Assembly (NCBI GenBank): GCA_964354185.1
Contig: CAYGZE010000002.1
Span: forward strand, 1-36,462
Direction of reading: 5' to 3'
Length of the DNA: 36,462 bases
DNA from: an uncultured Anaerolineales bacterium
Lineage (GTDB): Bacteria > Planctomycetota > Phycisphaerae > FEN-1346
The position numbers and the translations under genes were made by a program. Of the stretch, positions 7,676 through 36,462 are shown one piece after another. The notes beneath the pieces were generated by a model. That model was not told the origin of the DNA. It searched no databases and saw only the letters and a program-made list of their open reading frames with translations. The first letter of the stretch is position 1. Every line of letters starts with the position of its first letter.

Positions 7676-8458
7676 TCAAAGGAGGTCGTTAGGCCCAATA
7701 TTTTTAGTAGGAGCTTTTTTGATAAATACTATCGAACTAGTAATATAGATGCTCTCGAATTTTGACATTCTTGTTGGTTTCCCTTTCTGCAATCCTCTTG
7801 TAACATCTTGCGCAGCCTGCTCATCTATAAGCTGTTTGATAAATCCCACCATCCCGTAACTATGACTGCGCATTGGAAATCTCAGACCTAATTTCCCCGT
7901 TGCCTCTAACAAAAATAGCCAAAATGGACTCCGTTTGAACTTTTGTTGAGCGTACGACTCAAGATTGCGTTTGAACTTTTGTTGAGCGTACGACTCAAGA
8001 TTTAGTCTCTTGCCGTCAGGCCAGTCCCTCCAATAACCGGTACCCCAATCCTCAATTACATAAAGTCCATTTGGCTTAAGGTGGTTGTGAAATAGATGCC
8101 AAAACGCAGTTTTTGTTAACTCGCCAAGATGCGAAGCATCATCTATAATAATGTCAAATCCTTCGGGTGTAACGTTATTTGCAACCTGCGAGAGGAATTG
8201 AGGATCAGCTTGGCTCCCCTCAAAAATGTGAATGCGTTCGCCCGGATCAAAGCCGTCTGGAAGTTTAATATCAATCCCGACGATAGTTCCAAATGGAAAA
8301 TAATCTCGCCATAGTAAGAGTGACCCCCCTTTTAAAACCCCGAGTTCGAGAAGGGCGATCTTCTGATGGACATATGGTTCAAATATTTGATCATATAACT
8401 TAAGATGACCTATCTTATCTGAATCATATTTATCTAGAGATAGTTCTAAGCTTCGCAC
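7676..8458 (-). CDS. Class-I SAM-dependent methyltransferase (CmcI / sugar O-methyltransferase-like)
   Basis: 'DKYDSDKIGH..Y' N-terminal motif, 'LLELGVLKGGSLLLW' (motif I), 'IIIDDASH'. GTG start with an in-frame stop 7 codons upstream. Confidence 0.8.
   Translation of the reverse strand: MRSLELSLDKYDSDKIGHLKLYDQIFEPYVHQKIALLELGVLKGGSLLLWRDYFPFGTIVGIDIKLPDGFDPGERIHIFEGSQADPQFLSQVANNVTPEGFDIIIDDASHLGELTKTAFWHLFHNHLKPNGLYVIEDWGTGYWRDWPDGKRLNLESYAQQKFKRNLESYAQQKFKRSPFWLFLLEATGKLGLRFPMRSHSYGMVGFIKQLIDEQAAQDVTRGLQKGKPTRMSKFESIYITSSIVFIKKAPTKNIGPNDLL
7932..8003. repeat. Perfect-phase 36-bp tandem duplication inside the methyltransferase CDS
   Basis: 7932-7967 and 7968-8003 are 35/36 identical. The repeat encodes 'NLESYAQQKFKR' twice, in frame. 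Confidence 0.9.
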
Positions 8459-9103
8459 GTTATATCCTACTCTCGTTTAGCGGCATTCTTGATAATCTGC
8501 ATGGTTCTCGCCTCTTAGAACTGAAGGGTGTCACTTACGGTTGGATTTCTGAACGAAAAATAGTGAGGGATTCCGGTGCCGTGCGTAGTGTTCTTCGTGA
8601 GAAAATTAGAGAATAGTAGCGATCAGAGCAACGTGTAATTTATTGTTGTGGGTCCAGTGCTTTTAAATTGGGACCGGATTCGCGGGAAGGTAGTTGCGGT
8701 TAAAGCCACTCAGACCTCAGCCGTAGGTAAGCAGAGCTTGCATGTGGCAGCCCGATAAATAAGTCTTGAATTTAGCGAGTTTTATAACCCCTGACATTTC
8801 CAGTCACAAAAACTCATCAAAGAGCGGCGGCTTGTCATGCTTGACAGATCCAGGCATCCGTTTAATCACTTACAACCTTAACTCGTTTCGTGCTGAAAGT
8901 AATACCTATCCAATACGATGATACTGGGGATCAACTCAAGTAAAGGCAAAGCAGCAGTTTAAAAAAATTACGCACTTGAAATATAGTTAGAGCCTGCTGA
9001 GATTGACGTCATGAGAAACGATCGTTAAGAATCAAGGTCTACCCTAACCAGCGACAGATATCAGAAGACTTATTAGTCAAGAACATAGCTATTGCGAGAA
9101 ATA

Positions 9104-10366
9104 ATGAAACTGTTGTTCTTGTCGCACGATATTCCTTCTCCTGCATCGTCCGATACCCTATCGCTTTATCACCTGATCGGTCATTTGTCAGCTCTGTACG
9201 GCCACGACATTACTCTTATTTCTTTTATTTCAGAGCGTTTCAGGGCGGAGGACTTCAAGCATTTGAAGAACTTTTGTTCTATCGAGAATCCGATAAAGAT
9301 TCAATGGAGCTCACGTAAAAAGCTGATTCTTAAAGCAGTCAAGAACAGTATTCTGAACCTGCCAAAAAACGTAAGACACGGTTTGTACGTTAACGAGCTT
9401 GATTATTATTACGATTATAGAATGGATCAGAAGATAAAAGAGGCCCTTAAAAAGAACAAGTTCGAGCTGATCTTTTCGACACGACAAATGGCAAGTTATG
9501 TCGTCGACGTTGATATCCCAAAGATCGTGCAGCCTTTTGATGCCATGTGGGAATGGCACAGACAAATTTTTGCCAATTCAAGAGGGTTGAAAAGAAGTAT
9601 CTCCGGTATTCGCTATGCGTTAAATCGATTATATGAAGAGCGTATTTATGACAAGTTTGACAGGTGTTTGGTTGTAACTCAGCGAGACAAAGAGCTTCTT
9701 GAGTCATTGAATCCACGGATACGATGTACTCTAATACCTATCGCAGTGGACGTCGATTACTTCAGCCCTCTTGATATAAACGAGGAATCTGCTGCTTTGA
9801 CTTTCCTAGCGCACCTGCAATATCCTGTGGTGATTGCTAATGTTTTGCACTTCTACAAAGACGTTTTCCCTTTGATACGCAGGGAAAATCCCGATGTCAA
9901 GCTTTACCTCGTTGGCCGCAACCCAGCAAAAGAGATAATAGATTTATCGACTGACCCTGCAGTAAGTGTGACTGGATATGTGAATGATGTAAGACCATAT
10001 CTCGCGAAGTCCACTGTGGTCATCGCTCCTGAGATTTTAGGAACCGGAATGAAGTATAAAGTGCTCGAAGCAATGTCTATGGGTAAAGCCGTAGTAACAA
10101 CGACACTTGGGGCGCAAGGAATTGCCGCTAACAACCGAGAGCACCTCGTGGTTGCAGATACGCCTGCCGACTTTGCGAAAGCAACGCTTTCTCTTTTGAC
10201 AGATCGAGGTTTGAGGGCACCTCTTGGAACAAACGCTCGGAAGCTCGTGGAAGAACTTTATTCTTGGGAAGCTATAACCAAGGAAGTAAATCAGTTACTC
10301 GTCGACATAGTATCTGAGAGAGGATCTGATTTAGCTCTGGTGCAATCTTCGACGCATCTTACATAA
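9104..10366 (+). CDS. GT4-family glycosyltransferase
   Basis: GT-B C-terminal half 'GRNPAKEI...VIAPEILGTGMKYKVLEAMSMGKAVVTT'. ATG at 9104 gives 'MKLLFLSHD'; TTG at 9092 is an alternative start. Confidence 0.85.
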   Translation: MKLLFLSHDIPSPASSDTLSLYHLIGHLSALYGHDITLISFISERFRAEDFKHLKNFCSIENPIKIQWSSRKKLILKAVKNSILNLPKNVRHGLYVNELDYYYDYRMDQKIKEALKKNKFELIFSTRQMASYVVDVDIPKIVQPFDAMWEWHRQIFANSRGLKRSISGIRYALNRLYEERIYDKFDRCLVVTQRDKELLESLNPRIRCTLIPIAVDVDYFSPLDINEESAALTFLAHLQYPVVIANVLHFYKDVFPLIRRENPDVKLYLVGRNPAKEIIDLSTDPAVSVTGYVNDVRPYLAKSTVVIAPEILGTGMKYKVLEAMSMGKAVVTTTLGAQGIAANNREHLVVADTPADFAKATLSLLTDRGLRAPLGTNARKLVEELYSWEAITKEVNQLLVDIVSERGSDLALVQSSTHLT

Positions 10367-10953: not shown

Positions 10954-11724
10954 TTATGGTGAACTCGGAGCCTCCTTATCTTTGTTTTTTGCTATCCCTT
11001 CAGCTATAATAGTGAAGCCATATTCTTGATGCCGAGATATTTTTTCAGCAAGCAATACAAAAGGACAGGCTATAAATGAAGCTAGGCAATAAGCTAAAAC
11101 AGATCCAGATAAATTGACAGTGCTAGCTATAAAAAAGCGACTGATAGGTGTAGTTAGCAGATATCTACTCCTCGCAGTTTCAAAACCAGTCTGTCCAAAT
11201 CGCTCCTTTAGAGAAGCTTTCGTATAGAAATTAACTACTTGAAATACAAGCTTGTGTTTTTCTTTTGTTCTTGCTCCAATCGGAGCTGTAAAGCTATCTG
11301 TTGTGAGTATGAGTCTCCCGTTAGGCTTTAAAACTCTATGCATTTCGCTTAAGGCTTTTATATCTTCTCTAAAATGTTCTAAAGAGGAACTGCATACTAT
11401 CTTGTCGAAAAAGTTGTTTGGGTAAGGTAAATCTACGGCATCCCCGATTCTAAAGTGAGAATGGATCTTAAGTTTGTGTGAGAGCGCTCTTGCATCAGCA
11501 ATCGCGATCGTCGATCTATCAATGCCATAGACAGTGCCAACGCGTTCAGCGATCTTTAGGCTGAGTTCTCCGTCACCGCAAGCTAGATCCAATATTTTCT
11601 CGTTTTTATTTGGCTGGACCCACTCAAGTATGACTGGATACTCTATGCGTCTTTGAAAGTAAATTGTCCAGAAGAATTTATAATTCAGATATTTAACGAA
11701 TGTCTTTAGGTCCCTAATCTTCAT
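10954..11724 (-). CDS. Class-I SAM-dependent methyltransferase (Methyltransf_11-like)
   Basis: 'ILDLACGDGELS' (motif I), 'FDKIVCSSSLEHFRED...RVLKPNGRLIL'. Confidence 0.85.
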   Translation of the reverse strand: MKIRDLKTFVKYLNYKFFWTIYFQRRIEYPVILEWVQPNKNEKILDLACGDGELSLKIAERVGTVYGIDRSTIAIADARALSHKLKIHSHFRIGDAVDLPYPNNFFDKIVCSSSLEHFREDIKALSEMHRVLKPNGRLILTTDSFTAPIGARTKEKHKLVFQVVNFYTKASLKERFGQTGFETARSRYLLTTPISRFFIASTVNLSGSVLAYCLASFIACPFVLLAEKISRHQEYGFTIIAEGIAKNKDKEAPSSP

Positions 11725-11859: not shown

Positions 11860-13056
11860 ATGAAGCTGGGAAAGCACGATACCTCGCGGGGGATTAATGG
11901 GAAGCGTAAGAAACCGAATGTTGGCATTATGGTAGGAGAGCACTTCGAAAGATCTGGTGAAACTCCCTTGGCCAATCTGATCGCACTAGCCGCCCCGCTA
12001 ACAAATAAATTATTTCTTATTATTGGGGATTATCCAATTTCTATACCGCAGGTTGAGGTCCTTAAAATTAAAACTACACGGCGACGATTAGTTGTAACCC
12101 GAGTGTTTCAACAGGTTTTAACCCATTTGCGGGTCTTACTGTTGATGATAAAATTGCGCAAAGAGATTGACATCTTGATCTACATTTTCGGAACCCCTTT
12201 TCCAATCCCGCTTGTATTTGCGCAAGCTTTAGGCATGAGATGCTTCATTATCTTGGCATACGAGGGATCTGGAAAAGTCGTCGAGGCACTTAAAGAAAGC
12301 GGCGCTCCACGACAATTTGGAGAACTCACTAGGCTGCGCGCCCAAGCGGTGCTCGAACGGATTGGTTATTATTTTGCAGACAAGCTGATTATATACAGTC
12401 CAACCATTATTGACCGAATGAGGCTGCAGAGGTATACCGCGAAAATCGTGGTGGCACACAGGCACTTTGTGAACTTCGACGAATATAGGTTCAAGAATAA
12501 CATTGAAAAGAGGGATACTGTAGTTGGTTATATAGGACGCATCACTGCAGAAAAGGGCATATGGAATTTTGTTGAGGCAATTCCTAAAATCTTGAACATT
12601 CGCAATGATGTGACATTCCTAATAGCGGGCGAGGGTATATTAGAAGAGGAAATCCGTACATACTTGGATAATAACAGTCTGCACAATCAGGTTAAGCTCG
12701 CGGGGTGGATTCCGCACCAGGAATTGCCTGAGTATTTAACTAGCTTGAAATTGCTCGTGCTCCCATCGTACAATGAAGGGCTTCCGAATGTCATGCTCGA
12801 AGCGATGGCATGTGGAACGCCAGTGCTTGCTGTGAGCGTAGCTTCCATACCAGATGTGATAAAGGACAAAGAAACCGGTTTTTTGATCAAAGACAATTTG
12901 CCCAAACATCTCGCAGATACGGTTGTGGAGACACTAGCAAGCCCAGACCTGAAACGAATTGTTGCTAACGCTCATACTTTCGTTGAAAGCGAGTTTAGGT
13001 ACGATAATCTCACCTTAACGTGGAAGAACATCATTTGCGGCACAAACGAAGGGTGA
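11860..13056 (+). CDS. GT4-family glycosyltransferase
   Basis: 'GRITAEKGIWNFVEA', 'LPSYNEGLPNVMLEAMACGTPVLA'. Start is uncertain because GGAGGG abuts ATG 11860. Confidence 0.85.
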   Translation: MKLGKHDTSRGINGKRKKPNVGIMVGEHFERSGETPLANLIALAAPLTNKLFLIIGDYPISIPQVEVLKIKTTRRRLVVTRVFQQVLTHLRVLLLMIKLRKEIDILIYIFGTPFPIPLVFAQALGMRCFIILAYEGSGKVVEALKESGAPRQFGELTRLRAQAVLERIGYYFADKLIIYSPTIIDRMRLQRYTAKIVVAHRHFVNFDEYRFKNNIEKRDTVVGYIGRITAEKGIWNFVEAIPKILNIRNDVTFLIAGEGILEEEIRTYLDNNSLHNQVKLAGWIPHQELPEYLTSLKLLVLPSYNEGLPNVMLEAMACGTPVLAVSVASIPDVIKDKETGFLIKDNLPKHLADTVVETLASPDLKRIVANAHTFVESEFRYDNLTLTWKNIICGTNEG

Positions 13057-13093: not shown

Positions 13094-14107
13094 ATGAAGA
13101 GAGCGAAAAGAGTGTTGTTTGTCGGTGCTTGTGGGGTGTATTTCAGAACCTTTATGCAATGGGACTTGGATATCTTGAAGGAAGAGTTTGATGTTAGACT
13201 GGTCGAAGTCTGTTATGGCAAAAGTCAGTTGAGACGTACTTTAACAACCCACTGGAACCTGCTCTTAGGCGTTGCTTGGGCAGACGTGGTATTTTGTTGG
13301 TTTGCAAATTACGAGGCTTTTGCTGCAATCGCGTTGTCACAGCTGTTCAACAAAAAAACGGCGATAGCCGTTGGAGGACAAGACGTGACCACAATCCCAG
13401 AGCTCGGATATGGACTGGAATTACATAGCAGGCAGCATTTCTATCAAAAATTCGCACTGAATAGAGCGACGAAAGTTTTGCCCGATTCAAGAGACGCAGA
13501 AAAAGGAGCCTTGCGCTTTGTTAAAGACGCGGCAAAGGTTACGATGGTTTATCTTGGCATCGATGTTGAGAAATTCCATCCATTCGGTACTCAAAAGGAC
13601 GTAGTGATAACCGTAGGCGCCGTCACTCACAGTAACCTAAAGAGGAAAGGGCTCGAAACGTTCGTCAAATCTGCAGCCTACCTACCTAAAATAGAGTTTG
13701 TCCTAATTGGTCAGTTTCTAGATACGGCCATCGACTACTTACAATCGATTGCAACAAAAAACGTAAAATTTGTCGGCCATCTTCCTGAAAACGAACTTAT
13801 AAGGCAGTACCAGCAGGCTAAAGTGTATGTGCAAGTGTCTGCTCACGAAGCGTTCGGCGCTTCTTTGGCAGAGGCGATGGCGTGTGGATGTGTGCCTGTC
13901 GTTACTGATAGAGGAGCCATTCCTGAAGTTGTTGGGGAAACAGGGATTTATGTTCCTTACGGAGATGCAGCAGCAACAGCTGAAGGGATTAGGAGTGTGC
14001 TGGATTTAAATAACGGACAAAAAGCAAGACAACGGATTAAGGCGATCTTTACCATCGACAAAAGACGAAAAGAGTTACTTAAATCGGTCGATGAGCTTAT
14101 TTGCTGA
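13094..14107 (+). CDS. GT4-family glycosyltransferase
   Basis: 'SAHEAFGASLAEAMACGCVPVVTDRGAIPEVVG' EX7E-type region. Confidence 0.85.
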   Translation: MKRAKRVLFVGACGVYFRTFMQWDLDILKEEFDVRLVEVCYGKSQLRRTLTTHWNLLLGVAWADVVFCWFANYEAFAAIALSQLFNKKTAIAVGGQDVTTIPELGYGLELHSRQHFYQKFALNRATKVLPDSRDAEKGALRFVKDAAKVTMVYLGIDVEKFHPFGTQKDVVITVGAVTHSNLKRKGLETFVKSAAYLPKIEFVLIGQFLDTAIDYLQSIATKNVKFVGHLPENELIRQYQQAKVYVQVSAHEAFGASLAEAMACGCVPVVTDRGAIPEVVGETGIYVPYGDAAATAEGIRSVLDLNNGQKARQRIKAIFTIDKRRKELLKSVDELIC

Positions 14108-14459: not shown

Positions 14460-14862
14460 GCGGTGGGCTTGTTAGGGACAAGTAATGGTGCAGTTAATCG
14501 TAAAGTGTCATTCTGTTTTTTGCCCTTGCGAAATTCGGCAAGTGATTATTATCCAGTCGAGTATGTGAAGTTATATTAGACAAGCATGGCGAGCAGCAGC
14601 TAACGGGAGGGAGGTGAGAGAAACGGACTGGTCTAGGTCTTCTGCTTGTTCTGAATTTGCATGCGAATAATTTCGCTAAGTGGCCTTTTTGGCAATTGTC
14701 TCCCTTCTGGCGTTCTGCGTTGTTTTTTCGCGCCGTCGGTTGAAGCGTCGATTAGAAAAGATTCATATGTGACAACCCTGATAATGTCAGCAATCTGACA
14801 CAATAGTCATGGGCTTCTACCACGATTAACCACAAGAATTTAGTTTACCAGTGTTGAATGCG

Positions 14863-17049
14863 ATGGCCAACTTAGACTCAAAAACAATATGTGCGTTGAC
14901 GCTGTCATTCATCGGGTTTACAGACATTTCTATCATTTTGGATATTCCCATTCTGAGGCAAGTCCTCGGATTTGCGTTGCTCACCTTCTTACCGGGGTTT
15001 TTGCTGATTAAGATACTGAAATTGGGCAAGAATCGAGTAGAGGCGCTGTTGTTTTTAGTGGGACTTAGCATCTGCTTTTTGTTTTTTGTTCCATTAGGGA
15101 TAAACTTTACGTACCACGCATTAGGCATTTCGCGCCCGATATCCCTCCTCCCCCTCACTATAACATTGTCGTTGATTTTGGCAGCATTGAGTTTGGTTAG
15201 CTACTGGAAAGTCCCTGTGGGGTTTCAAATTACTAAAAAAGACATCAGGGTGTCGATTAGCAGGATTATGAGCACTACAGCACTAGGGGCAGCATTGATC
15301 CTGGTACTTGGTATTCTCGGAGCACTCTTTGTTTGGTTTTATAGCAACTCCTTTTTTTCTTTGCTCTCATGGTTGAGCATTGCCATGATCGTTGCTCTAA
15401 TAGTAACAAGTCGGAGGATTCCCGAGCGTTTTTACCCGCTCTTTGTCTTGATAATTGCTCTCACTCTTCAATACAGCCGGACGCTCACATCGCCAAATCT
15501 ATTCGGAGTAGACGCCCATTATGAGCTCTATTTTGCTGACTTGGTAAAATCAGCTGGGTATTGGGATCCAAGTTTTTCGATACGTAACGTGTACTTTAGC
15601 AACTATTTTGCAATGCTAAGCGTGACCATGCTGCCAAATGTCTATTCCATCTTACTCAACATTGACCTCGTCTGGGTGTTTAAGTTGATATCACCCTTCA
15701 TTTTCGCTTTTGTCCCCTTAGGGCTATACGAGATATACAAGACGCAGGTAAAATTCAGCAGTAAGGCGGCATTTCTCGCTACGTTCTTTTTCATGTCCTT
15801 TTTCGCATTTTATCTTGCTATGCCCTGGGTTACGAGGCAGGAAATCGCAGAACTCTTCCTGGTGCTTGTGATACTACTATTCACGAGTAAAGGGGTGCCT
15901 GAGCCGAAAAAAACAGCACTGCTAATACTGTTTATAGGCGGGATGGTGGTCGCTCACTACACAACAGCCTACATATTCCTGTTTTACCTCGCCGTTCTTT
16001 TGATCGGATCGTTCATAATAGCATCAAAAAACAGACAGAAACGGCGGGTATCACTAGCCACTGTATTGATTGTTCTTTTAACTGTATTGATGACTTTTGG
16101 ATGGTATTTGTTTGCTTCTCATGGTGCACCACTGCAGGCACTTGCCCAAGTAGGGAGCCGCGCTTACAGCTCAATGCTCTCTCTTAGTAGCGATCCTTAC
16201 GTTCAGGCTGGGTTAGGTGGCGGCGTAGGTGGTTTGCCGCTCGCTCACGTGTTAGGCCGTGTTTGGCAAATCGCCACAGAAGTCTTAATTATAGTTGGGT
16301 TTGGCTTTGTGATATGGCGGCGCGAAACTCATAAGATGAGTTCCGCATTATTTTTGCTTTCGCTTGCAAGTTTCGCCGTGCTGCTAGTCGTTGTAGGTTT
16401 TCCGTCGCTCGGTACAGCGGTAAACTCTTATAGGGCGTATTCTGTCGCTTTACTTTTTTTGGCTCCCTACTGCGTAATTGGCGTGCAGGTGATTTCTGCT
16501 TTCGCGTCTATTTGGCTCCGTGCCGACAAGGGTACAGTATTTAAGCTACAATCCGCAGCGCTGATCGGCGTGCTTATTCCGTATTTTCTTTTTCAATGTG
16601 GCTTTTTTTATGAGCTTACAGAGCATCAATCAAATTATGCTTTCTTACCCTCGCAGAGTCAAAACCAACTGGTTCTTAATTACTCTGATAATGCAAGCTG
16701 GTCATATGCAGCAGCTGCACCTATACCTGCTGAAAGCGTCTATGCGAGTAAGTGGCTTTGCAGCACGATGGGCCGATCTCCGGTCTACGTGGACGGTTAT
16801 AGAAGCGCCGAACTCATTGGTTATGGGCACATTTCGCCGAACTCGGTCATTGGTCCTACGATCTACAACGTAAATCTACCGCTCAAAAATACGTACATCT
16901 ATCTCGCTGGTGCGAATGTCCAGCAAGGTACCCTCCTCGTAACAACCGAGGAACGGCAAATTTCAACCATCCCTGCGCTGACTACTGCAAACCGAATATA
17001 CAGCAACGGTCTTGCGCAAGTTTACTACACCCCTGCGTCAATACTTTGA
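14863..17049 (+). CDS. Large polytopic membrane protein, DUF2206-like; possible GT-C-type transferase or polymerase
   Basis: About 560 aa with many hydrophobic helices, followed by a roughly 170-aa soluble C-terminal domain. ATG at 14863; GTG at 14851 is an alternative. The DUF2206 assignment is from memory of archaeal homologues. Confidence 0.75.
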   Translation: MANLDSKTICALTLSFIGFTDISIILDIPILRQVLGFALLTFLPGFLLIKILKLGKNRVEALLFLVGLSICFLFFVPLGINFTYHALGISRPISLLPLTITLSLILAALSLVSYWKVPVGFQITKKDIRVSISRIMSTTALGAALILVLGILGALFVWFYSNSFFSLLSWLSIAMIVALIVTSRRIPERFYPLFVLIIALTLQYSRTLTSPNLFGVDAHYELYFADLVKSAGYWDPSFSIRNVYFSNYFAMLSVTMLPNVYSILLNIDLVWVFKLISPFIFAFVPLGLYEIYKTQVKFSSKAAFLATFFFMSFFAFYLAMPWVTRQEIAELFLVLVILLFTSKGVPEPKKTALLILFIGGMVVAHYTTAYIFLFYLAVLLIGSFIIASKNRQKRRVSLATVLIVLLTVLMTFGWYLFASHGAPLQALAQVGSRAYSSMLSLSSDPYVQAGLGGGVGGLPLAHVLGRVWQIATEVLIIVGFGFVIWRRETHKMSSALFLLSLASFAVLLVVVGFPSLGTAVNSYRAYSVALLFLAPYCVIGVQVISAFASIWLRADKGTVFKLQSAALIGVLIPYFLFQCGFFYELTEHQSNYAFLPSQSQNQLVLNYSDNASWSYAAAAPIPAESVYASKWLCSTMGRSPVYVDGYRSAELIGYGHISPNSVIGPTIYNVNLPLKNTYIYLAGANVQQGTLLVTTEERQISTIPALTTANRIYSNGLAQVYYTPASIL

Positions 17050-19001: not shown

Positions 19002-19109
19002 CCAATAATGCCGCGTAAGCAGTGAAGCGATGTGAGGAAGTCCGAAATGATACTGTCCCCAGAGCAAACGGGAAACTTTTTAATAATTTGTTCTAAAGAA
19101 CGTACGGGG

Positions 19110-27351: not shown

Positions 27352-28155
27352 ATGAGTCAGGCAAAAGTCGTGATATTAAGTGGGGGGTTCGGCACTCGCC
27401 TGCGTGAAGAAACTGAATTCAGGCCCAAACCGATGGTGAGTGTTGGAGATAAGCCCTTGCTATGGCATATAATGAAAACTTATGCGCATTATGGATATAC
27501 TGACTTTGTCATTTGTCTTGGTTATAAAGGCAATATGATCAAAGAGTATTTCTTGAATTATGCGATGATGAATAGCGATTTTACGGTTCACCTGGGCAAC
27601 GCGAACCGTACTTATTTTCACAGCAATCATGACGAAAAAGACTGGACGGTCACTTTGGCGCACACGGGACTACGTGCGCAGACCGGAGCTCGAATCGGAC
27701 GAGTCGAGAAGCACATAGCAGAAGATTGGTTCATGGTTACCTATGGAGATGGGATCTCTAACGTCAACATAGCCGAGCTTGTGGAGTTTCATAATTCACA
27801 CAAAAAAATAGGGACTGTAACGGGAGTACGACCGTCGTCTCGATTCGGAGAACTCATAGTCGACAAGAACAAAGTTGTGGAGTTTAACGAAAAACCACAA
27901 GTGAATGAAGGATTGATTAACGGCGGCTACTTCTTGTTTGACCGAGCTTTTTTTTCGTATTTGAATGAAGAAGACGACTGTATCTTGGAAAAGGAACCCC
28001 TCATGAACTTAGCTAACGATGGTCAGCTTATGGTTTACGAGCACGATGGCTTTTGGCAGTGCATAGACACTTATAGAGAATTGGAGTACGTCAACAATAT
28101 CTGGAGAACGTCTGCCCCGCCACAAATTGTACTGTCTGAGACAAGCTCATCTTAG
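27352..28155 (+). CDS. rfbF: Glucose-1-phosphate cytidylyltransferase with a replaced C-terminal tail
   Basis: 'KVVILSGGFGTRLREETEFRPKPMV..GDKPLLWHIMK', 'HDGFWQCIDTYRE'. The last roughly 10 aa ('QIVLSETSSS') are read from the antisense of a GT39 fragment. Confidence 0.9.
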   Translation: MSQAKVVILSGGFGTRLREETEFRPKPMVSVGDKPLLWHIMKTYAHYGYTDFVICLGYKGNMIKEYFLNYAMMNSDFTVHLGNANRTYFHSNHDEKDWTVTLAHTGLRAQTGARIGRVEKHIAEDWFMVTYGDGISNVNIAELVEFHNSHKKIGTVTGVRPSSRFGELIVDKNKVVEFNEKPQVNEGLINGGYFLFDRAFFSYLNEEDDCILEKEPLMNLANDGQLMVYEHDGFWQCIDTYRELEYVNNIWRTSAPPQIVLSETSSS

Positions 28156-28291: not shown

Positions 28292-28591
28292 ACTCTGTGG
28301 GCGGTAGCTTGAGTACTTAAAGATTGCGACTTCATCGTCTCGTGCAAATCGCGTGCTTTCAACGACGTTATCGCGCGCTACCGCAATTCCGGACACTTTG
28401 ACCGACCGTCATAACCACGAGTTTCCAAAAGGTTGAATAGGCAAAATTGAAATACTGTTGAAAAACAACTTCCTGCCGGGCAGGCGAAGGAATTAGAATG
28501 CAGGGGTTACCAACCAACAACAAATTAGGGGCTCTTGATTGTCACTCGGAGAACCGGATGCAAGGCGACCACAGGTGATAAGCCTTCTGCT

Positions 28592-28644
28592 GGGCCTGCT
28601 CCGCCGAAAACAGGTTAAAAGCCTTTGGGCGGGCCTGCTCCGCC
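28592..28644. repeat. Two copies of the 14-mer gggcctgctccgcc, 39 nt apart
   Basis: Exact copies at 28592-28605 and 28631-28644. The second copy ends 2 nt before ATG 28647. Confidence 0.85.
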
Positions 28645-28646
28645 AT

Positions 28647-29405
28647 ATGGATGAGATTCTGTCAGCCTGTCACCAGGAACGCGACATAAGAGATCTGGAG
28701 CAGGACAAAGATTTCCAGTTAAGCAAGGATACAGCCAAGGATGTAGAGGGATGGTTAGCAAATGTCGAGGGGGCGCTACTCTACTCTCTGGCCAAGAAAT
28801 GCAACCCCAAAGGAGTGATCGCAGAAATCGGCTCGTGGAAAGGCAAGTCAACAGTTTTTTTAGCACAAGGATCCCAAGCGGGGCCGCGGGTGAAAGTCTA
28901 CGCCGTCGATCCGCACGAGGGGGATGCTCAGGTTCTTGTTGATATTCCTACTTTTCACGAGTTCAAGCAGAATATGGCGAACGCACAGGTCGAGGATATC
29001 GTCGTTCCGATCGTGAAAACCTCGAGAGAAGCTGCAAATGATTTTCTTGAGCCTTGTGCGCTCATCTTCGTTGACGGGAGTCACGAACCTGAGAGCGTCA
29101 AACAAGACTTTGCGTTGTGGTATCCTAAACTCATCGAAGGGGGTATCATAGCATTTCACGATACGCTCGGCTGGGCCGGGCCAAGGATGCTCGTAAAGGA
29201 CGCGCTCTACAAATCGCACAACTTCAAAAACGTTAGATTTGCCAGGTCAATTACCTATGGCGAGAAAGTCGTTCAAAACACGCTGGCAGATCGATTGAAA
29301 AACAGGTACTTTCTTCTCTTTAACGACATTGTTGCTCTTTATTTTTCATGTTTTGTCAAAATAGTGAGATTTGGTGATGCGCTAGGCGGACAGGCTTTGC
29401 GCTAG
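28647..29405 (+). CDS. Class-I SAM-dependent methyltransferase (Methyltransf_24-like)
   Basis: 'VIAEIGSWKGKSTVFLA' (motif I), 'IFVDGSHEPESVKQDF'. ATG at 28647 chosen; the ORF track starts at TTG 28539. Confidence 0.8.
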   Translation: MDEILSACHQERDIRDLEQDKDFQLSKDTAKDVEGWLANVEGALLYSLAKKCNPKGVIAEIGSWKGKSTVFLAQGSQAGPRVKVYAVDPHEGDAQVLVDIPTFHEFKQNMANAQVEDIVVPIVKTSREAANDFLEPCALIFVDGSHEPESVKQDFALWYPKLIEGGIIAFHDTLGWAGPRMLVKDALYKSHNFKNVRFARSITYGEKVVQNTLADRLKNRYFLLFNDIVALYFSCFVKIVRFGDALGGQALR

Positions 29406-29618: not shown

Positions 29619-30788
29619 TCACATGGGGGTAGGGCCGTCACTAGACCAGTACCAGTTGTGCCACGCACCGTTATAGTATTCTTTTTGGTAGAGGTAGCCG
29701 TTAGTCCCGCGAGTAAAGACGTCGATTTCTACCGTTCCCGAATACGTGAACGTCGTGGCGCACGGAGTCGTCTCTAATCCTCCGACTAGGTTTGTCCAGC
29801 CTGTCCACCCGCCAACTGACTTGTATGTTTTTTGATACATATAGCCGTTTGTACCCGCTACAAAGAAGTCCATACGGAATGTACCAGCAGAGACTGAGCC
29901 ATATGTGCAGATCGCTGGTGCGGTACCCGCTGCAACACCACCGCCCACGTAGCCCGTAGCCCACCAGTTGCCCGCGATACTGTACTCATACCCATAGACG
30001 GCGCCGTTGGTGCCGCGGACAGCTACTTCGACGTAACTGCTTTCCCGAGAAGCGGCTGTCGGTGACGACCCTAGTACGCCACCAATGCCAATGTATTTCC
30101 AGTCACTCCATCCAGCAGTATTAGTCCATGTTTTTTTATACATCAGGCCGCTCGAACCCTTTACAAAGAGGTCCACACGATTTGGGGTTTTGGCGACCGC
30201 TGGTCCGGTACCATATGAAACGTAACCAAGATTCCCGCCGGGCGTGTACTCAGCGCTCCACGTCCCGCCAGAATTGTGGAACCCGTGGACGGAGCCGTCA
30301 GTGTGGCGCCAAAAGACACTCATGGAAGCGAGACTATTTTCAGTCGACGAGGAGGCTGTGGGCGATGAGGTCAGCGATCCGCCAAGGCGGACCCATCCGC
30401 CTACCCAGTTAAGCGTCGTCGTAGACCAAATCCTGTACCAGCAGGCGCCGTCACTGCCTTTCACAAAGACGTACATGTCGTTTGTGCCGTACCTAATGCA
30501 AGAAGCAGGACCTGTGCCTGCAGCGATGGGCGAGCCCGTGAGATCGGGCGTTGGTACGGCGACCCTGCTGTTCTTAGCCTCGACAGCGACGACGGTAGTT
30601 GTGGGTGTTGCGGCGTTTTTAAATATGCCTTCACCGGCTACGGTGCTGGCGGGTTCGGCGACTGTACTAGCTTTGCTAGTGGTTTCGTCACTAGTGACTG
30701 CACTCACGCTCGTCGTCGCGTAGACCGCGCAGAGCGAGAGGAGCATGATGGCCGCCAAGGCGACACTCAAACTTCTTTTATGTTTCAT
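29619..30788 (-). CDS. Secreted multi-bladed beta-propeller repeat protein (PLL/DUF346-like or tectonin-like lectin fold)
   Basis: Signal peptide 'MKHKRSLSVALAAIMLLSLCAVYATTSVSA', then a Thr/Ser/Ala-rich linker, then about six repeats of 45-50 aa with 'F(V/T)(K/R)G(T/S)(N/D/S)G..Y' and 'W..W..(L/I)GG.L.S.P'. GAGGTGA lies 8 nt upstream of ATG 30788; ATG 30845 is an alternative. Confidence 0.85.
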   Translation of the reverse strand: MKHKRSLSVALAAIMLLSLCAVYATTSVSAVTSDETTSKASTVAEPASTVAGEGIFKNAATPTTTVVAVEAKNSRVAVPTPDLTGSPIAAGTGPASCIRYGTNDMYVFVKGSDGACWYRIWSTTTLNWVGGWVRLGGSLTSSPTASSSTENSLASMSVFWRHTDGSVHGFHNSGGTWSAEYTPGGNLGYVSYGTGPAVAKTPNRVDLFVKGSSGLMYKKTWTNTAGWSDWKYIGIGGVLGSSPTAASRESSYVEVAVRGTNGAVYGYEYSIAGNWWATGYVGGGVAAGTAPAICTYGSVSAGTFRMDFFVAGTNGYMYQKTYKSVGGWTGWTNLVGGLETTPCATTFTYSGTVEIDVFTRGTNGYLYQKEYYNGAWHNWYWSSDGPTPM

Positions 30789-31703
30789 ACATTGATTCAC
30801 CTCGTTCCCGGTAGAGGCAAGCGTAATTGCCGCGTTGCGCCGCATCTACGTGCCTGCTTCCGGGGTCCATGCTACACTAAAATATAAACAAACTACAGTG
30901 TGTTTATACGTAATAAAGGTTGTGTGACGCCGGATTGTTACAGCTTGCTGCAGACGCGCCGACGAGGAAGCGTGACGAAACGAACGCTGCCCACTCTTGT
31001 AACGGATCCCGCTCGCCGCGTTAGCGCGCCGTTATCAGCTCTCAACCGTTTTTACGCACTCGCTTCTATATATCGATACTTTTCGCTGTATCTAGCGGAG
31101 TGCCGATTTTTTTGCGCTTTTTGACACCGTATGCCGCGATGAATTGCGTTCGAAATCACCACCACCGTTACCGATCTTTCCGCATTTTCAACGTTGCGCA
31201 TGAAGAAATGAACGACTACCTCGAAAGGGGCAGGTCGATCGGGTAGTCGCGGCGGCCCGCTAATGCCGTGTGCGACTATCTAATAGGGGTCTTTTTGATG
31301 TCAGCGCGCACAGTTATTGTGACAGTTAATTCGCGTTTATTGACTTTTCACGCTCAGAGAGACTATCCAGGCCTCCAACGCGCTCGGCAGCGCAAACGCT
31401 CGCGCCCCGTCCCACTGCTAGTTCTAAGAGGAAAGCTCCCCGCTATGCTAGAAGTAAAGACTAGATGGGCGATGCAGGGGGCCAATTAGTTGCGGATCAA
31501 AGTGGTCTGATGCAATGAACGAGCAAGGCGAACGTGTCGTAGGCACTCGTTATCGTTGGCCTACAATTTGGTGAAATATGCTCGTTCATAAATTGCGGAA
31601 TCTCCTAATGCGCAAGTAGCAACATTTAAATCGCCCGTAGAGCTAACGATACGAAAAGGCACAATTGGCAAAAAAGCCAGGATAAGGGCCCTCGAGGCAA
31701 ACT

Positions 31704-32549
31704 ATGATCAAGAAAGCCGTAATACCGGCAGCGGGCTTAGGGACAAGATTTCTGCCAGCGACGAAAGCGCAGCCAAAAGAGATGCTTCCTGTTGTTGATA
31801 AGCCAGTCATCCAATATGTCGTCGAAGAAGCACGGTCGTCTGGAATAGAGGACATCTTGATCATCACAGGACGAAACAAACGAGCTATAGAGGATCATTT
31901 CGACAGAGGGACTAGTGACAACAAGTACGTGGTTGAACTCGATGAAATGATGGACGCGGTGAGCCTTTTTTATACTCGACAGCGGGAGCCAAAAGGGCTC
32001 GGTGATGCCGTCTCTTATGCGAAAAGCTTCGTGGGGGAAGAGCCGTTTGCCCTGTTGTTGGGAGATACGATTACCATGCCGGAGTGCACACGTGAATTAA
32101 TTTCAAAATATGACGCGTTCAAGGCGTCTATCGTTGCGGTAGAAGAGGTTCCCACGGAGAAAATAAGCAGCTACGGGGTAGTAAAAGGAAGAGAAATCGA
32201 AAAGGATATGCTCCTTGTCGAAGACCTGGTGGAGAAGCCCGCACAAGAGGCCGCTCCGTCAAACTTGGCGATCTTGGGCCGCTATATTCTAACCCCGGCA
32301 ATATTCGACGCAATTGAACAGACACAGCCAGGAACGGGAGATGAGATTCAGCTTACCGATGCGCTCCGTCGTGTGGAGGAGAACAAATACGCGTACGTTT
32401 ACCGGGGGAAAAGACACGACATCGGGAACAAGCTTGACTGGATCAAATCGAACATTGAGCTTTTTTTGCACGACGAACGGTTCAGGGGAGAACTGGGACG
32501 TTTTTTAGAGGCAGTTAGAGAGGACAATGGTGAACACAAGAGAGGTTAA
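31704..32549 (+). CDS. galU: UTP--glucose-1-phosphate uridylyltransferase
   Basis: 'KAVIPAAGLGTRFLPATKAQPKEMLPVVDKPVIQYVVEEA', 'LGDAV'. Confidence 0.9.
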   Translation: MIKKAVIPAAGLGTRFLPATKAQPKEMLPVVDKPVIQYVVEEARSSGIEDILIITGRNKRAIEDHFDRGTSDNKYVVELDEMMDAVSLFYTRQREPKGLGDAVSYAKSFVGEEPFALLLGDTITMPECTRELISKYDAFKASIVAVEEVPTEKISSYGVVKGREIEKDMLLVEDLVEKPAQEAAPSNLAILGRYILTPAIFDAIEQTQPGTGDEIQLTDALRRVEENKYAYVYRGKRHDIGNKLDWIKSNIELFLHDERFRGELGRFLEAVREDNGEHKRG

Positions 32550-33531
32550 GGAAATAATTGCCAATCTCGGTGGCGTCAGAGAAAAAGCTGCCAGCAAGAC
32601 CGTTTTAGTGACGGGAGGTGCAGGATTTCTGGGCTCGTGGTTATGCGACGTGCTCGTTGAACTTAATGCAAACGTGATCTGCTTGGACAATCTTGCGAGT
32701 GGCTTGGAGTCTAACATATCAGGACTACTAGCTAAGGATAATTTCACGTTCATCAAGCACGACATCACGCGGCCGCTGTTTTTTGATGAAGATTTAGACG
32801 TGGTGCTACATCTAGCGAGCAGGGCTTCCCCATTTGAGTTTCAGCGGTTCCCCATCCAGATTCTTAAGGCAAACACACTGGGAATTTGGGTTGCACTTGG
32901 CATAGCGAAGCATCACAAAGCACGACTTCTCTATACGTCAACGTCCGAGATATACGGAAATGCAACCGAGATACCGACGTCAGAAGAGTACACCGGTAAT
33001 GTGAACCCCATCGGGGCACGAAGTTGTTATGACGAGGCGAAGAGGTGTGGGGAATCCTTTGTCGCGGCGTACAGGGTAGAGCACGGGATGGACGCGAGGA
33101 TCGCACGACTTTTTAACACGTATGGGCCACGGATGCGGGCAGATGACGTGTATGGACGAGTAGTGCCTCGCTTTATTGAGCAAGGGCTAAACGACTCGCC
33201 CATTACCGTGTTCGGGGATGGATCGCAGACGAGAAGCTTTTGTTATGTCACCGATCAAATAGAGGGGCTGCTACGACTCACTTTCTCAGATGGTCTAGAC
33301 GGAAAAACTGTAAACATCGGAAATAACGAAGAGATACCAATCATTGCGCTTGCGGAACTTATAAAGAAGTTAACGAACTCCACGTCAGAAATCATTTTTG
33401 AAGATCTGCCCAAAGACGACCCGCTAAGGAGAAGGCCAGATATTCGCAAGGCCAAAGAGCTTCTAAATTGGAAACCGAAGGTCGGTTTAGAAAGAGGACT
33501 CGAACGAACAATTCACTGGTTTAGGATGTAA
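32527..33531 (+). CDS. UDP-glucuronate decarboxylase (UDP-xylose synthase)-like SDR
   Basis: 'VLVTGGAGFLGSWLCD', 'STSEIYG', 'RSCYDEAKRCGE', 'RIARLFNTYGPRM', 'GDGSQTRSFCYV'. 23-nt overlap with galU. Confidence 0.85.
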   Translation: MVNTREVKEIIANLGGVREKAASKTVLVTGGAGFLGSWLCDVLVELNANVICLDNLASGLESNISGLLAKDNFTFIKHDITRPLFFDEDLDVVLHLASRASPFEFQRFPIQILKANTLGIWVALGIAKHHKARLLYTSTSEIYGNATEIPTSEEYTGNVNPIGARSCYDEAKRCGESFVAAYRVEHGMDARIARLFNTYGPRMRADDVYGRVVPRFIEQGLNDSPITVFGDGSQTRSFCYVTDQIEGLLRLTFSDGLDGKTVNIGNNEEIPIIALAELIKKLTNSTSEIIFEDLPKDDPLRRRPDIRKAKELLNWKPKVGLERGLERTIHWFRM

Positions 33532-33536
33532 TAATC

Positions 33537-34421
33537 GTGCCACCGCAGTACGACGTCGCCGTCGCTTACAGAATCTATCCGAAGGTCTCAAAGGTCCCCC
33601 CCGTCTTCCCCAACGACAAGTACAAATTATCAGAGCTCTGTCTGAAGAGCTTTAAGGACTCCCTCGGCTCACTGAAAGTAAAAATGTTCGTCTTGCTCGA
33701 TGGTTGCCCCCCGAGCTATAATGACTTGTTTACACAATACTTTGACGAGCAGGACTTGGAGCTGATCAGGCTCAACGGGGTTGGAAACCGCGCAACCTTT
33801 GATATGCAGATTAAGCTCCTCTTGGATCAAAATTTCTCAGAAATTGTCTATTTTGCCGAAGATGACTACCTGTATCTTCCAAACCAGTTTGAACGTATGG
33901 TGCAATTTCTAAAAGAAGCAGCGCACGTCGACTTCGTCTCTCCGTATGATCACATGGACTACTATGTTCTTGATTTACACAACCAAAAAAACTTCATCAA
34001 ATTCTATAATGACGCATACTGGCGAACTGCGGCTTCAACGTGTTTAACCTTCCTTACCACGAAAACGAAACTCGGAAAAACTCAAAACGTCTTTCATAGT
34101 TACTCACAGGGAAATCGTGACGCAAGCCTCTGGCTGAGCCTAACAAAGCACACGTTGTTCAACCCTCTTGTCATATTGAGGTATTACCGAGCAAACGGAG
34201 ACTTTTTTGGAATCATCAAGCTCGCGTGGCAATTCTGCTGGAGACAAATCTTATTTGGCAAACGGCGGAACTTGTGGGTTCCCATTCCGAGTATTGCAAC
34301 CCACATGGAGCGTGACCATTTAGCCCCGACCTTCGCCTGGCTCACGAAAAGTGGGGAGACAACTATTGAGCAAAACATGCACGCAAACGATAGCGAATAT
34401 GTCGCTCCCGCTATTATCTGA
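33537..34421 (+). CDS. Putative GT-A-fold glycosyltransferase (uncharacterised family)
   Basis: GTG start 5 nt after the upstream stop. 'VAVAYRIYPKVSK', 'VLLDGC', and 'YFAEDDYLY' (DxD-like). Family assignment is tentative. Confidence 0.55.
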   Translation: MPPQYDVAVAYRIYPKVSKVPPVFPNDKYKLSELCLKSFKDSLGSLKVKMFVLLDGCPPSYNDLFTQYFDEQDLELIRLNGVGNRATFDMQIKLLLDQNFSEIVYFAEDDYLYLPNQFERMVQFLKEAAHVDFVSPYDHMDYYVLDLHNQKNFIKFYNDAYWRTAASTCLTFLTTKTKLGKTQNVFHSYSQGNRDASLWLSLTKHTLFNPLVILRYYRANGDFFGIIKLAWQFCWRQILFGKRRNLWVPIPSIATHMERDHLAPTFAWLTKSGETTIEQNMHANDSEYVAPAII

Positions 34422-34894: not shown

Positions 34895-34935
34895 CTTAAA
34901 AAAGACGGAGGCGAAAAGGGAACCGCCTTTTCGCC
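34895..34935 (-). terminator. Intrinsic-terminator-like hairpin plus T-tract downstream of the peptidase-propeller gene
   Basis: Perfect 10-bp stem ggcgaaaagg/ccttttcgcc with a 6-nt loop (34910-34935). On the minus strand it is followed by 'tccgtctttttt', about 30 nt after the stop. Confidence 0.6.
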
Positions 34936-34966
34936 CATACTCTAATGTTGCGCTATCTGCACTGCG

Positions 34967-36462
34967 TTACATATAGACCTTCTCGTAGAGGGCGCCATTG
35001 GTGCCGCGCGCAAAGAGCTCGATCACACCAGCAGTCGGTGACGTCGCAGCGGGTGACGAGGTCACCTGCCCGCCGAGGGATTTCCAGCCGGACCACGCGT
35101 TAGTCCACGTGTTCTGATACACGGCGCCGTTCGTCGGTTGTACGTTCGTGCCTTGTATAAAGACGTCTTCACGAGCTGTGCCCCATGAGCTGAGCGCCGG
35201 TCCGGTATTCGCTTGAATCCCCCCGCCGAGGCTGGCCCAGGGGTTCCACGTCGGAGAGACATATGCCCTGTAATAGTCGGCGCCGTTCGAACCGCGGGCA
35301 TGGACGTCGATAAGACCCGTCCCCCGCGATACGGCTCCGGGTGACGAGGTCAGGTAGCCACCGAGATTTTCCCAGCCAGCATGGCCCGTCCACGAGTGGT
35401 AGAGCTGGTGGTTCGTGCCGATGACAAACCAGCCGGTCCGGGCGGTTCCCCAGTCGTAAGCGGCAGGGCTCGTGCCGGCAAGGAGCTGCCCGCCGAGGCT
35501 GGTCCACCCGCCCCAGATGCCTCCCGCGTAGTGCTTCGTGTAGAGAGCGCCGTTACTGCCGCGGGCATAGACGTCAATCACGCCACTATCCGGTGACGTC
35601 GCGGCGGGTGAGGACGTTAGGTACCCACCGAGGGGTGTCCAGCCACTGCCCGTCGACCAATAGAGTTGGTGGTTTGTGCCGATGACAAAACAGCCGGTCG
35701 TCGATCCCGAGGTGTACGCGGCAGGGCTCGTACCGGCGAGAATCTGCCCGCCGAGGTTGGTCCAAGCGCCCCAGGCGCCCGATTGAGTGCCTGTGAACGC
35801 TTTAATACATATGTTCAAGGTACTATCAACGGTCGTTGCATCTTGCCACCCAGTTCCGTCTGAGCTGAAATAACTCTGTCCAGGCGATGCAGTGGCAGCG
35901 CTCGAGTATCCGGCCAGGGCGTACTCGGATGCTATCGGCCAAGCGTAGCTAGGATTGGTGTACTTGACGACGACTGAGAATGTCTGTCCAGAGCTGAGCG
36001 AAACGGGCGTCGTCAGTTTGACCGTGTGGTATCCTGGCGTCGAGAACGTGCCGGTCGGGCCGACATGTTGCGTTCCGCTTGTCGGGCCTGAGGTTGCATC
36101 GGTGTAGATGTACACTTGGTACTGCGTGTTCACGTCGTTCGTGTAGAAGCTCACTGCGGTGAGGGGTTTAGCGCTGCTATCGGCAGTAAAAACGTTCGCC
36201 CCCCACGCGGTTGTAGTAGTTCCGCCGTAGCCCAAATCTGTAACCCAGCCTAGTGGATCGTACTGGTACCCTGCGGCGTAGTTGGACGCGGGCTCGCCCG
36301 TAAACGATGTCGCTTGGGTAATCGAAGTGTCGTAGTACGAGAGGTAGAAGTACCCCCCATCGCCCCACGACGTTCCCCAGCTGTTCTTTACAATAAATGC
36401 ACCATTTCCGGGCGGGGCTCCCGCATAGCCGCGGAAGTTGCTTGCGGCATAATTGTCGTCCC
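34967..36462 (-). CDS. Papain-family (C1) cysteine peptidase C-terminal part + beta-rich lectin-like domain + six-bladed PLL/DUF346-like propeller (5' end off-window)
   Basis: The frame stays open from TTG 36235 to the window edge and reads '...GAFIVKNSWGTSWGDGGYFYLSYYD...', the C1 peptidase NSWG..WG..GY motif. About 150 aa of beta-rich sequence follow, then six repeats with 'W..LGG.L.S.PAA' and 'ARG(S/T)NGALY' / 'VIGTNHQLY'. Confidence 0.85.
   Translation of the reverse strand, partial: DDNYAASNFRGYAGAPPGNGAFIVKNSWGTSWGDGGYFYLSYYDTSITQATSFTGEPASNYAAGYQYDPLGWVTDLGYGGTTTTAWGANVFTADSSAKPLTAVSFYTNDVNTQYQVYIYTDATSGPTSGTQHVGPTGTFSTPGYHTVKLTTPVSLSSGQTFSVVVKYTNPSYAWPIASEYALAGYSSAATASPGQSYFSSDGTGWQDATTVDSTLNICIKAFTGTQSGAWGAWTNLGGQILAGTSPAAYTSGSTTGCFVIGTNHQLYWSTGSGWTPLGGYLTSSPAATSPDSGVIDVYARGSNGALYTKHYAGGIWGGWTSLGGQLLAGTSPAAYDWGTARTGWFVIGTNHQLYHSWTGHAGWENLGGYLTSSPGAVSRGTGLIDVHARGSNGADYYRAYVSPTWNPWASLGGGIQANTGPALSSWGTAREDVFIQGTNVQPTNGAVYQNTWTNAWSGWKSLGGQVTSSPAATSPTAGVIELFARGTNGALYEKVYM
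35228..35752. repeat. Tandem two-blade duplication (about 258-267 bp units) within the propeller coding region
   Basis: Unit A (35495-35752, aa 'GGQILAGTSPAAY...WGGWTSL') and unit B (35228-35494, 'GGQLLAGTSPAAY...NPWASL') are visibly similar at the DNA level, for example 'gtgccgatgacaaa(a/c)cagccggtc'. Confidence 0.8.

Follow-up and report, generated by a model that had tools for sequence, protein, structure and literature searches.

The stretch of DNA considered here, hereafter the window, comprises the first 36,462 nucleotides (36.5 kb) of contig CAYGZE010000002.1, and strong Pfam and NCBIfam matches among its 26 open reading frames (ORFs) of at least 200 residues identify its entire length as a surface-glycan biosynthesis locus. 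The island is of the Wzx type and combines five or six glycosyltransferases and several sugar-nucleotide enzymes with six intact S-adenosylmethionine (SAM) methyltransferases, and its right-hand part encodes two beta-propeller proteins, the stand-alone propeller A and the protease-fused propeller B. A sequence-only reading of positions 7676-36462 had proposed that the island makes a heavily O-methylated glycan and that the propellers, likened there to the PLL/DUF346 and tectonin lectins, could read it; the glycan locus extends over positions 1-7675 as well. Both propellers are homologous to the PLL lectins, are predicted to adopt a lectin fold with the residues of a hydrophobic sugar pocket, and belong to families whose genes recur beside glycan genes.

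Propeller A is encoded at 29619..30845 on the minus strand, tail-to-tail with the methyltransferase gene MT6, and consists of a signal peptide, a linker rich in Thr, Ser, Ala and Pro, and a six-bladed PLL-type propeller at residues ~110-405. Searches of the PDB with phmmer matched it to PLL2, PHL, PLL, PLL3 and PLL4 at about E 1e-18 to 2e-18 (PLL2/PHL at ~2e-18). Its N-terminus (MKHKRS..LLSLCAVYATTSVSA) resembles a signal-peptide leader that is kept in 12 of 15 homologues, and given this conservation the true start is likely Met20 at 30788; the protein would be secreted. A genome scan using propeller A alone returned no relative, and alignment A1 of its homologues lacks any stretch of sufficient conservation for scanning a collection. 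Several of the stand-alone homologues (P0007, P0011-P0013, P0015 and P0016 in alignment A1) end in a conserved Cys-rich tail, GPPCQ-x-NCG/Y, which may constitute a disulfide or sorting motif and which the window protein lacks.

Propeller B lies in the C-terminal 497 residues of a Cwp84-like protease encoded at 34967..36462 on the minus strand, in a frame that runs beyond the window end. This portion holds the last ~45 residues of a Peptidase_C1 domain (E 2.6e-5), a Lectin_like domain (PF18560, E 9.3e-52, over the full model length) and the PLL-type propeller. The closest PDB match by phmmer is PLL2 at E 3.8e-42, with PLL2, PHL and PLL3-5 spanning E 4e-42 to 1e-28, and the Cwp84 structures 4d59/4ci7 match at E 1e-13. 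The C1A part within the window includes the Asn-Ser-Trp-Gly motif; the positions of the catalytic Cys and His fall past the window end, and both residues are present in full-length homologues of 647-808 residues that carry signal peptides; the window protein, too, is probably secreted. Family and PDB sequence searches found no CWB2 repeats in it, the C-terminus being the PLL propeller. The earlier description of one propeller with a signal peptide (A) and another fused to a papain-type protease (B, of the Cwp84-like C1A type) therefore holds.

Both propellers carry the precomputed Pfam label PF26607 (Beta-prop_PLL), and neither matched in a local Pfam copy, even at E = 10; membership of the PLL family rests on the PDB sequence search (E 4e-42 for B and 2e-18 for A) together with these labels. 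AlphaFold2 models, built with 14-15 homologues each, give both proteins six blades of four strands, at a pLDDT of ~90 over the propellers (>90 over the blades of A). On comparison of each model with the PDB by Foldseek, the top 22 matches were all PLL-family lectins, including complexes with methyl-fucoside, 3-O-methyl-glucose and the O-methylated PGL-1 disaccharide. Next came the six-bladed fucose lectins AAL, AofleA, AFL and RSL, and tectonin-2 with 2-O-methyl-fucoside, and for both models the TM-scores to the six-bladed lectins exceed those to PLL. The proposed PLL/DUF346 likeness is thus borne out, and a non-lectin fold is not what was modelled. The likeness to tectonins fared differently: there is no tectonin match in Pfam or NCBIfam, and tectonin membership was rejected, the resemblance being one of fold alone (Lb-Tec2, 5fsb, E 4e-8, target-normalised TM-score 0.75). 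Tectonin-2 of Laccaria bicolor, AAL, AFL/FleA and RSL share the six-bladed lectin fold of the window propellers at target-normalised Foldseek TM-scores of 0.70-0.78, and tectonin-2 binds O-methylated sugars; however, these defence or adhesion lectins for non-self glycans show no sequence-family match to the window propellers, are 12-17% identical to them and differ in pocket chemistry.

The PLL lectins themselves (PLL, PLL2-5 and PHL of Photorhabdus, and CV39L) share with the window propellers sequence homology, blades with W motifs, inter-blade hydrophobic pockets and multivalency. They have seven blades, whereas models and repeat counts agree on six in the window propellers, in an alternating two-type (3x2) pattern. 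They are also free proteins with ligands in a host, whereas one of the window copies is fused to a protease, the window host reads as an archaeon and the proposed ligand is self. By homology and predicted fold, the window propellers are new to the PLL family, either as archaeal members with six blades or as variants of it.

Two kinds of site are described for PHL. The fucose or hydrophobic site is made up of the Gly-Val backbone after 'SLNG', the Thr of 'RGTD', the Trp of 'ALW' and, from the following blade, the second Trp of 'WSSW'; the galactose or polar site draws on 'GRLEV' for its Arg and Glu, on 'HIW' for a Trp, and on the adjoining linker for a Gln, a Ser and a Trp (PMC5584973). At the hydrophobic sites, which two conserved Trp define, fucose faces competition from O-methylated ligands (PMC12203525, PMC6943638), and the specificity for L-fucose and O-methyl sugars that the sequence-only reading had given for the family is correct (PMC6943638, PMC12203525). 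Pocket residues of the window propellers were mapped by sequence rather than by coordinate superposition. The hydrophobic-site motif G-[T/S]-x-x-x-[L/V]-[W/Y], together with the second Trp of WxxW in the following blade, is complete in all six blades of B and in roughly four of the six of A, and GG-x, Thr/Ser, Tyr and the next-blade Trp are found in every blade of B. Across 135 blades of two archaeal families, position 32 is Thr or Ser in all and the stacking position is Trp or Tyr in 97%. The stacking residue, Trp in PLL lectins, is mostly Tyr in both window propellers, as in PLL2 blades W4 and W5. Both of these carry 'NNALY', and PLL2 site 5H is occupied by ligand (the assignment of blades to sites is our own); since PLL2 has Tyr at this position and site 5H holds ligand, Tyr would be compatible with binding. 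At the polar site, the GRLEV Arg is replaced by Val or Leu in blades with 'LTSSP', Arg and Asp are kept in blade 5 of B alone, and the HIW Trp is mostly missing in both propellers.

The six methyltransferases that the sequence-only reading had placed among the glycosyltransferases are all there as uninterrupted ORFs, interleaved with four GT4/GT1 glycosyltransferases, one GT2 and one GT2-like protein, a Wzx flippase, a DUF2206 membrane protein, two nucleotidyltransferases and two epimerases/dehydratases of the short-chain dehydrogenase/reductase (SDR) class. Five of the six pass Pfam thresholds, three as Methyltransf_11/23/25 types and two as Methyltransf_24. MT1 (7676..8458, minus) has a weak Pfam match (E 0.05); among solved sugar O-methyltransferases in the PDB, phmmer relates it to MycE (3ssm, E 1.6e-22) and to TylE/demethylmacrocin O-methyltransferase (8ia9, E 2e-11). 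Within MT1, a 36-bp unit is repeated perfectly, in tandem and in frame, at window positions 7932-8002 (2.0 copies, 100% match), which doubles the 12 residues NLESYAQQKFKR; this duplication is recent, since the 75% identical orthologue at locus L110 has a single copy. MT2 (10954..11724, minus; Methyltransf_31/11/25, E 5e-25), MT4 (21720..22499, minus; Methyltransf_11, E 3e-20) and MT5 (25258..25968, plus; Methyltransf_11/23, E about 1e-14 to 3e-14) are class I SAM methyltransferases, and MT3 (17552..18343, minus; E 5e-13) and MT6 (28539..29405, plus; E 1e-26) match Methyltransf_24 (PF13578). MT6 further has a weak match to RMNT_CmcI (rhamnosyl-O-methyltransferase/CmcI) and its best PDB match to entry 6g7d (E 2e-11), which we take to be the mycobacterial methylmannose-polysaccharide O-methyltransferase. 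Matches of the six to NCBIfam were generic and below threshold, and no NCBIfam model gives a substrate. Since MT1 alone is clearly homologous to MycE/TylE, an O-methylated glycan is a reasonable reading for at least one enzyme and is not established for all six; the other five are generic and have no assignable substrate. It is appreciated that 3-O-methyl sugars do occur in the S-layer glycan of a methanogen (PMC5744192).

The remaining glycan genes can be read from left to right. The part to the left of MT1 encodes a dolichyl-phosphate hexose transferase of the AglJ kind (69-785), an oxidoreductase of the Gfo/Idh/MocA family, a GT4 glycosyltransferase and a split PMT_2 (ArnT-like) glycosyltransferase (5612-7169, plus). 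The latter is broken by a single frameshift near 6178-6180: compared with the intact 509-residue orthologue at locus L093, residues 1-189 lie in one frame and 190-509 in the next; the split marks either a pseudogene or a mistake in the assembly. Glycosyltransferases of the GT4/GT1 type (9092..10366, plus; Glyco_trans_1_4, E 1e-25) and the GT1 type follow, the latter at 11860..13056 (plus), 13094..14107 (plus) and 20334..21512 (minus), with Glycos_transf_1 matches at E 2.5e-38, 7e-24 and 1.5e-21, respectively. Between them are the polytopic DUF2206 protein (14851..17049, plus; PF09971, E 1.6e-37), which may act as a polymerase or a transferase, and a GT2 glycosyltransferase (19032..20183, plus; Glycos_transf_2, E 2e-16) with a 68% identical orthologue at L110. 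The Wzx-type flippase (23232..24683, plus; Polysacc_synt_3, E 1e-20) has orthologues of 76% identity at L110 and 71% at L003. An SDR-type NDP-sugar epimerase/4,6-dehydratase (25958..26911, minus; Epimerase/GDP_Man_Dehyd, E 4e-57), whose top NCBIfam match, below the cut-off, is dTDP-glucose 4,6-dehydratase, offers a possible route to a 6-deoxyhexose. It is followed by a glucose-1-phosphate cytidylyltransferase, with CDP-glucose as its product (27352..28155, plus; TIGR02623, 322.5 bits against a cut-off of 300.25). Between the propellers lies a conserved block of three plus-strand genes: GalU, the UTP-glucose-1-phosphate uridylyltransferase (31704..32549; TIGR01099, 331.7 bits, above the cut-off); a UDP-glucuronate decarboxylase or UDP-xylose synthase (UXS; 32527..33531; Epimerase, E 1e-49), whose 86-90% identical homologues carry the name UDP-glucuronate decarboxylase; and, as final gene, a GT2-like protein (33537..34421; weak Glycos_transf_2, E 0.02) that is 69% identical and syntenic in locus L148.

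Most genes of the window are separated by intergenic spacers of 500-1000 bp (for example 4571-5611, 8459-9091, 22500-23231, 30846-31703 and 34422-34966), an unusually loose spacing for a prokaryotic biosynthetic cluster. These spacers hold neither an Rfam family nor a tRNA, and scans of the window with Rfam, for tRNAs and for tandem repeats found no RNA gene. Close homologues of the window genes are labelled 'Halobacteriota archaeon' or 'Euryarchaeota archaeon' and come mostly from environmental metagenome assemblies of JGI and ENA; going by these names, the host appears to be an uncultured archaeon of the Halobacteriota type, probably living in peat or soil. The GC content at third codon positions (GC3) is 0.34-0.52 in a central block (7676-25968) and 0.51-0.69 in the flanks (1-7169 and 28539-36462, including both propellers). 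The island is thus a compositional mosaic, like exchangeable O-antigen-type cassettes. A further PMT_2 sequence lies at 28115-28291 on the minus strand, inside an ORF at 28091-28396; this N-terminal remnant, which matches residues 1-59 of the L093 PMT_2 at 78% identity, partly covers the cytidylyltransferase gene at its 3' end.

Do such propellers occur with glycan islands in related genomes, as the sequence-only reading would have it? PLL contexts were gathered from three sources, namely homologues of propeller A, homologues of the protease-propeller and a metagenome scan with the propeller alignment; 80 genome loci that encode this protease core, almost all of them lacking a propeller, served as controls, and 78 of these were counted. 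The contexts were screened with seeded iterative hidden Markov models trained on this lineage, for a glycosyltransferase or Wzx within 10 kb. Such a gene was present at 9 of 23 dereplicated PLL contexts (L003, L008, L009, L012, L093, L102, L110, L115 and L129) and at 3 of 78 control loci (Fisher p = 5.5e-5). This p value is optimistic, because the controls come in part from other, broader taxa and some linked loci are mutually related; the remaining 14 of the 23 contexts have no glycan linkage. A Pfam count over 130 ORFs near PLL genes found 12 transferase-family matches (GT2 six times, GT1 four times, Glyphos_transf twice), and Methyltransf_11 four times; none of the 25 families that were listed for the 145 control ORFs is a glycosyltransferase family. 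L110 and L003 are islands related to the window (Wzx 76% and 71%, GT2 68%, MT1 75%) in which PLL genes are kept despite rearrangement, two of them flanking the MT1 orthologue at L110. Linkage to glycan loci thus recurs well above the control, but it is neither stable nor specific to islands rich in methyltransferases.

The family to which propeller B belongs is large, with 1492 homologues at E<1e-10, and its architecture joins a signal peptide, a C1A protease, a Cwp84-type lectin-like domain and a PLL propeller. On the same core of C1 protease and lectin-like domain, the C-terminal module may alternatively be PKD, FG-GAP/VCBS, dockerin, DUF11, Big_3_5 or fascin. Conversely, the PLL propeller is also found on subtilisin, peroxiredoxin/thioredoxin and a DUF2334 deacetylase, and its bacterial partners are the cell-wall hydrolases SpoIID, CHAP and amidase_2 along with C39-like and astacin domains. 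As partners are swapped on both sides, the propeller behaves like an exchangeable module for extracellular targeting or anchoring. PLL-propeller genes very often stand in adjacent pairs (L004-L008, L093-L104, L109-L115), made up of a small and a large protein or of a protease fusion and a stand-alone propeller.

Precedents for self-glycan anchoring come from bacteria. In Bacillus and related Gram-positives, SLH domains hold surface proteins non-covalently on a modified self-glycan, the secondary cell-wall polymer pyruvylated by CsaB, and the modification genes are linked to surface-protein genes; unlike the window system, this one has an unrelated fold, is bacterial and involves pyruvylation rather than methylation. 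Cwp84 of Clostridioides difficile is a closer parallel: like protein B, it joins a C1A protease and a PF18560 lectin-like domain to a C-terminal non-catalytic module, and its gene, too, adjoins a surface-glycan locus. In C. difficile, CWB2 repeats fasten Cwp84, like other wall proteins, to the polysaccharide PSII, whose locus is directly downstream of the slpA/cwp84 locus (PMC4973711). The C-terminus of Cwp84 comprises three CWB2 repeats where protein B has a PLL propeller; its host is bacterial, whereas that of protein B is read as an archaeon without peptidoglycan-linked polymers; and neither an S-layer gene nor secA2 lies near protein B. Moreover, the adjacency of protein B to glycan genes does not extend to three homologues, all found in one and the same non-glycan setting. 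Because a self-glycan module encoded beside the pathway of its ligand is already established for both CWB2-PSII and SLH with its secondary cell-wall polymer, the proposed coupling would not be a new category. The claim that it is undescribed has to be withdrawn, since CWB2-borne Cwp84 on PSII, beside its locus, was known (PMC4973711). A limited full-text search on 'DUF346', seen at the level of titles and abstracts, returned nothing on PLL-type propellers in archaeal glycan islands.

The reading to which we tentatively lean, at somewhat less than an even chance, is that the island builds a methylated glycan and that the propellers anchor proteins A and B on this glycan of their own cell. Under such a scheme, the island would supply UDP-glucose, UDP-xylose, CDP-glucose and probably a 6-deoxyhexose; on a lipid carrier, an oligo- or polysaccharide would be put together by five or six glycosyltransferases and methylated by as many as six SAM methyltransferases; and Wzx would flip it outward to the envelope. 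The propellers, both encoded in the right-hand part of the island, would act as multivalent carbohydrate-binding modules whose hydrophobic pockets (Thr/Ser, Tyr/Trp and the invariant next-blade Trp) grip methyl-bearing sugars, either 6-deoxy or O-methyl, of the own envelope. The propeller of B would then hold a Cwp84-like cysteine protease on the envelope, as the CWB2 repeats do for Cwp84 on PSII, and protein A, a bare propeller, could serve as a glycan cross-linker or coat component. That the island encodes both a MycE/TylE-like methyltransferase and a CDP-glucose route to deoxy sugars speaks for this reading. The interpretation of the sequence-only reading is thus supported in part: lectin identity and a recurrent link to glycan genes are borne out and self-glycan anchoring is plausible, whereas methyl-specific reading by the propellers and novelty of the concept are not supported.

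Several observations weigh against anchoring on the island's own methylated glycan. On a sequence reading, most of the polar PLL-lectin pocket (Arg, Glu, Trp, Gln) is gone from both propellers, five of the six methyltransferases match no specific NCBIfam family, and methyltransferases are present at only about 6 of 10 linked loci. The propeller genes have a flank-like GC3 of 0.60-0.69 and four of the six methyltransferases lie in the low-GC3 core (0.34-0.46), a difference which suggests separate histories for the two. The PMT_2 remnant at 28115-28291 looks like a recombination scar where the low-GC3 core meets the right-hand stretch carrying MT6 and propeller A. The closest relative found, with a UXS of 86% identity (24 contigs read), keeps the GalU-UXS-GT2-like block at the edge of a glycan island and has no propeller within 10 kb of that block; synteny with it stops at ~31660 and ~34200, exactly at both propeller genes. 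Further, two of the closer homologues of propeller A, P0003 and P0008, lie outside glycan loci, and the protease-propellers P0036, P0038 and P0040 (49-57% identical) share a common non-glycan context. Taken together, the synteny breaks, the non-glycan homologues, the patchy methyltransferases, the GC3 mosaic and the PMT_2 scar make PLL genes look like part of a flexible pool on which such islands draw, rather than like fixed partners of a methylation pathway.

Two of these contexts merit description in their own right. In the closest relative (L147-L149), a chagasin-type inhibitor of papain proteases (Inhibitor_I42; 7327-7884, minus) occupies the place of propeller A, ~1.3 kb upstream of GalU-UXS; a tblastn search of the window with the relatives' protein gave no match, and a chagasin-type inhibitor in the window was rejected. 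At L090, L091 and L092 (about 1300-12400) the gene order is a VWA protein, a giant AAA_5/HEAT (midasin-like) ATPase, a 185-residue protein, a transglutaminase-core protein and the protease-propeller, a context that suggests a different functional partnership for this subgroup of protease-propellers.

The strongest alternative holds that the propellers are lectins for foreign glycans, which would offer fucose, rhamnose or O-methyl sugars and come from plants, fungi, bacteria or nematodes of the peat or soil habitat, with a role in adhesion, in substrate capture for the attached protease or in defence, and that co-location merely reflects the pooling of surface genes in flexible islands. The characterised PLL-family and tectonin lectins all bind non-self glycans (PMC5584973, PMC6943638, PMC12203525); fusions to protease, subtilisin, deacetylase and peroxiredoxin would suit the targeting of extracellular substrates; and the propellers sit at synteny breakpoints, are missing in the closest relative and lie in a compositional mosaic where the PMT_2 remnant marks recombination. 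However, the glycan linkage recurs (9/23 against 3/78) and survives rearrangement in L110 and L003, bacterial members of the family are fused to hydrolases of the producer's own wall, and the Cwp84 precedent favours self-anchoring, so that foreign-glycan binding appears rather unlikely. Were it nevertheless the case, the arrangement would be an ordinary clustering of surface genes in a flexible island.

It could also be that the co-location is coincidental or due to hitch-hiking, the propeller perhaps being a general scaffold for proteins or ligands and not a reader of the island's product. The abundance of the PLL domain, with its 1492 homologues, often two per locus and several per genome, is in keeping with such a view, as are the 14 of 23 contexts unlinked to glycan genes and the several linked loci without methyltransferases. 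It is nonetheless decidedly unlikely, given the enrichment over controls in two independent screens and the conservation of the pocket residues, aromatic in 97% of blades; a mere scaffold would not need a sugar pocket. That the propeller proteins are instead envelope components or glycoprotein substrates of the island, S-layer-associated or in a sheath, is improbable, since propeller A, for all its signal peptide and its Thr/Ser/Pro-rich linker typical of O-glycosylated stalks, and for all that surface glycoprotein genes often neighbour their own glycosylation genes, has no N-X-S/T sequon (read by eye), no membrane anchor and no recognisable S-layer domain, and its fold and pockets are those of soluble lectins.

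Finally, it is poorly understood how archaea, having no peptidoglycan-linked polymers, retain secreted enzymes at their surface, and it is on this question that anchoring on a self-glycan would bear. A broader proposal, which we regard as unlikely on present evidence, is that six-bladed PLL propellers constitute a widespread archaeal envelope anchor, a counterpart of SLH and CWB2, that reads methyl-bearing sugars of the own S-layer or sheath, moves between secreted enzymes (C1A protease, subtilisin, deacetylase, peroxiredoxin) and travels with variable glycan islands, anchor and glycan thereby co-varying. If PLL propellers do bind a methylated or deoxy-sugar glycan of their own cell, this would define an archaeal anchoring mechanism and give a function to a large unannotated protein family of peat and soil lineages related to methanogens. 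It would also provide a genomic marker that pairs lectins with their candidate ligands, and would extend to self-recognition a lectin family known only from the biology of insect pathogens.

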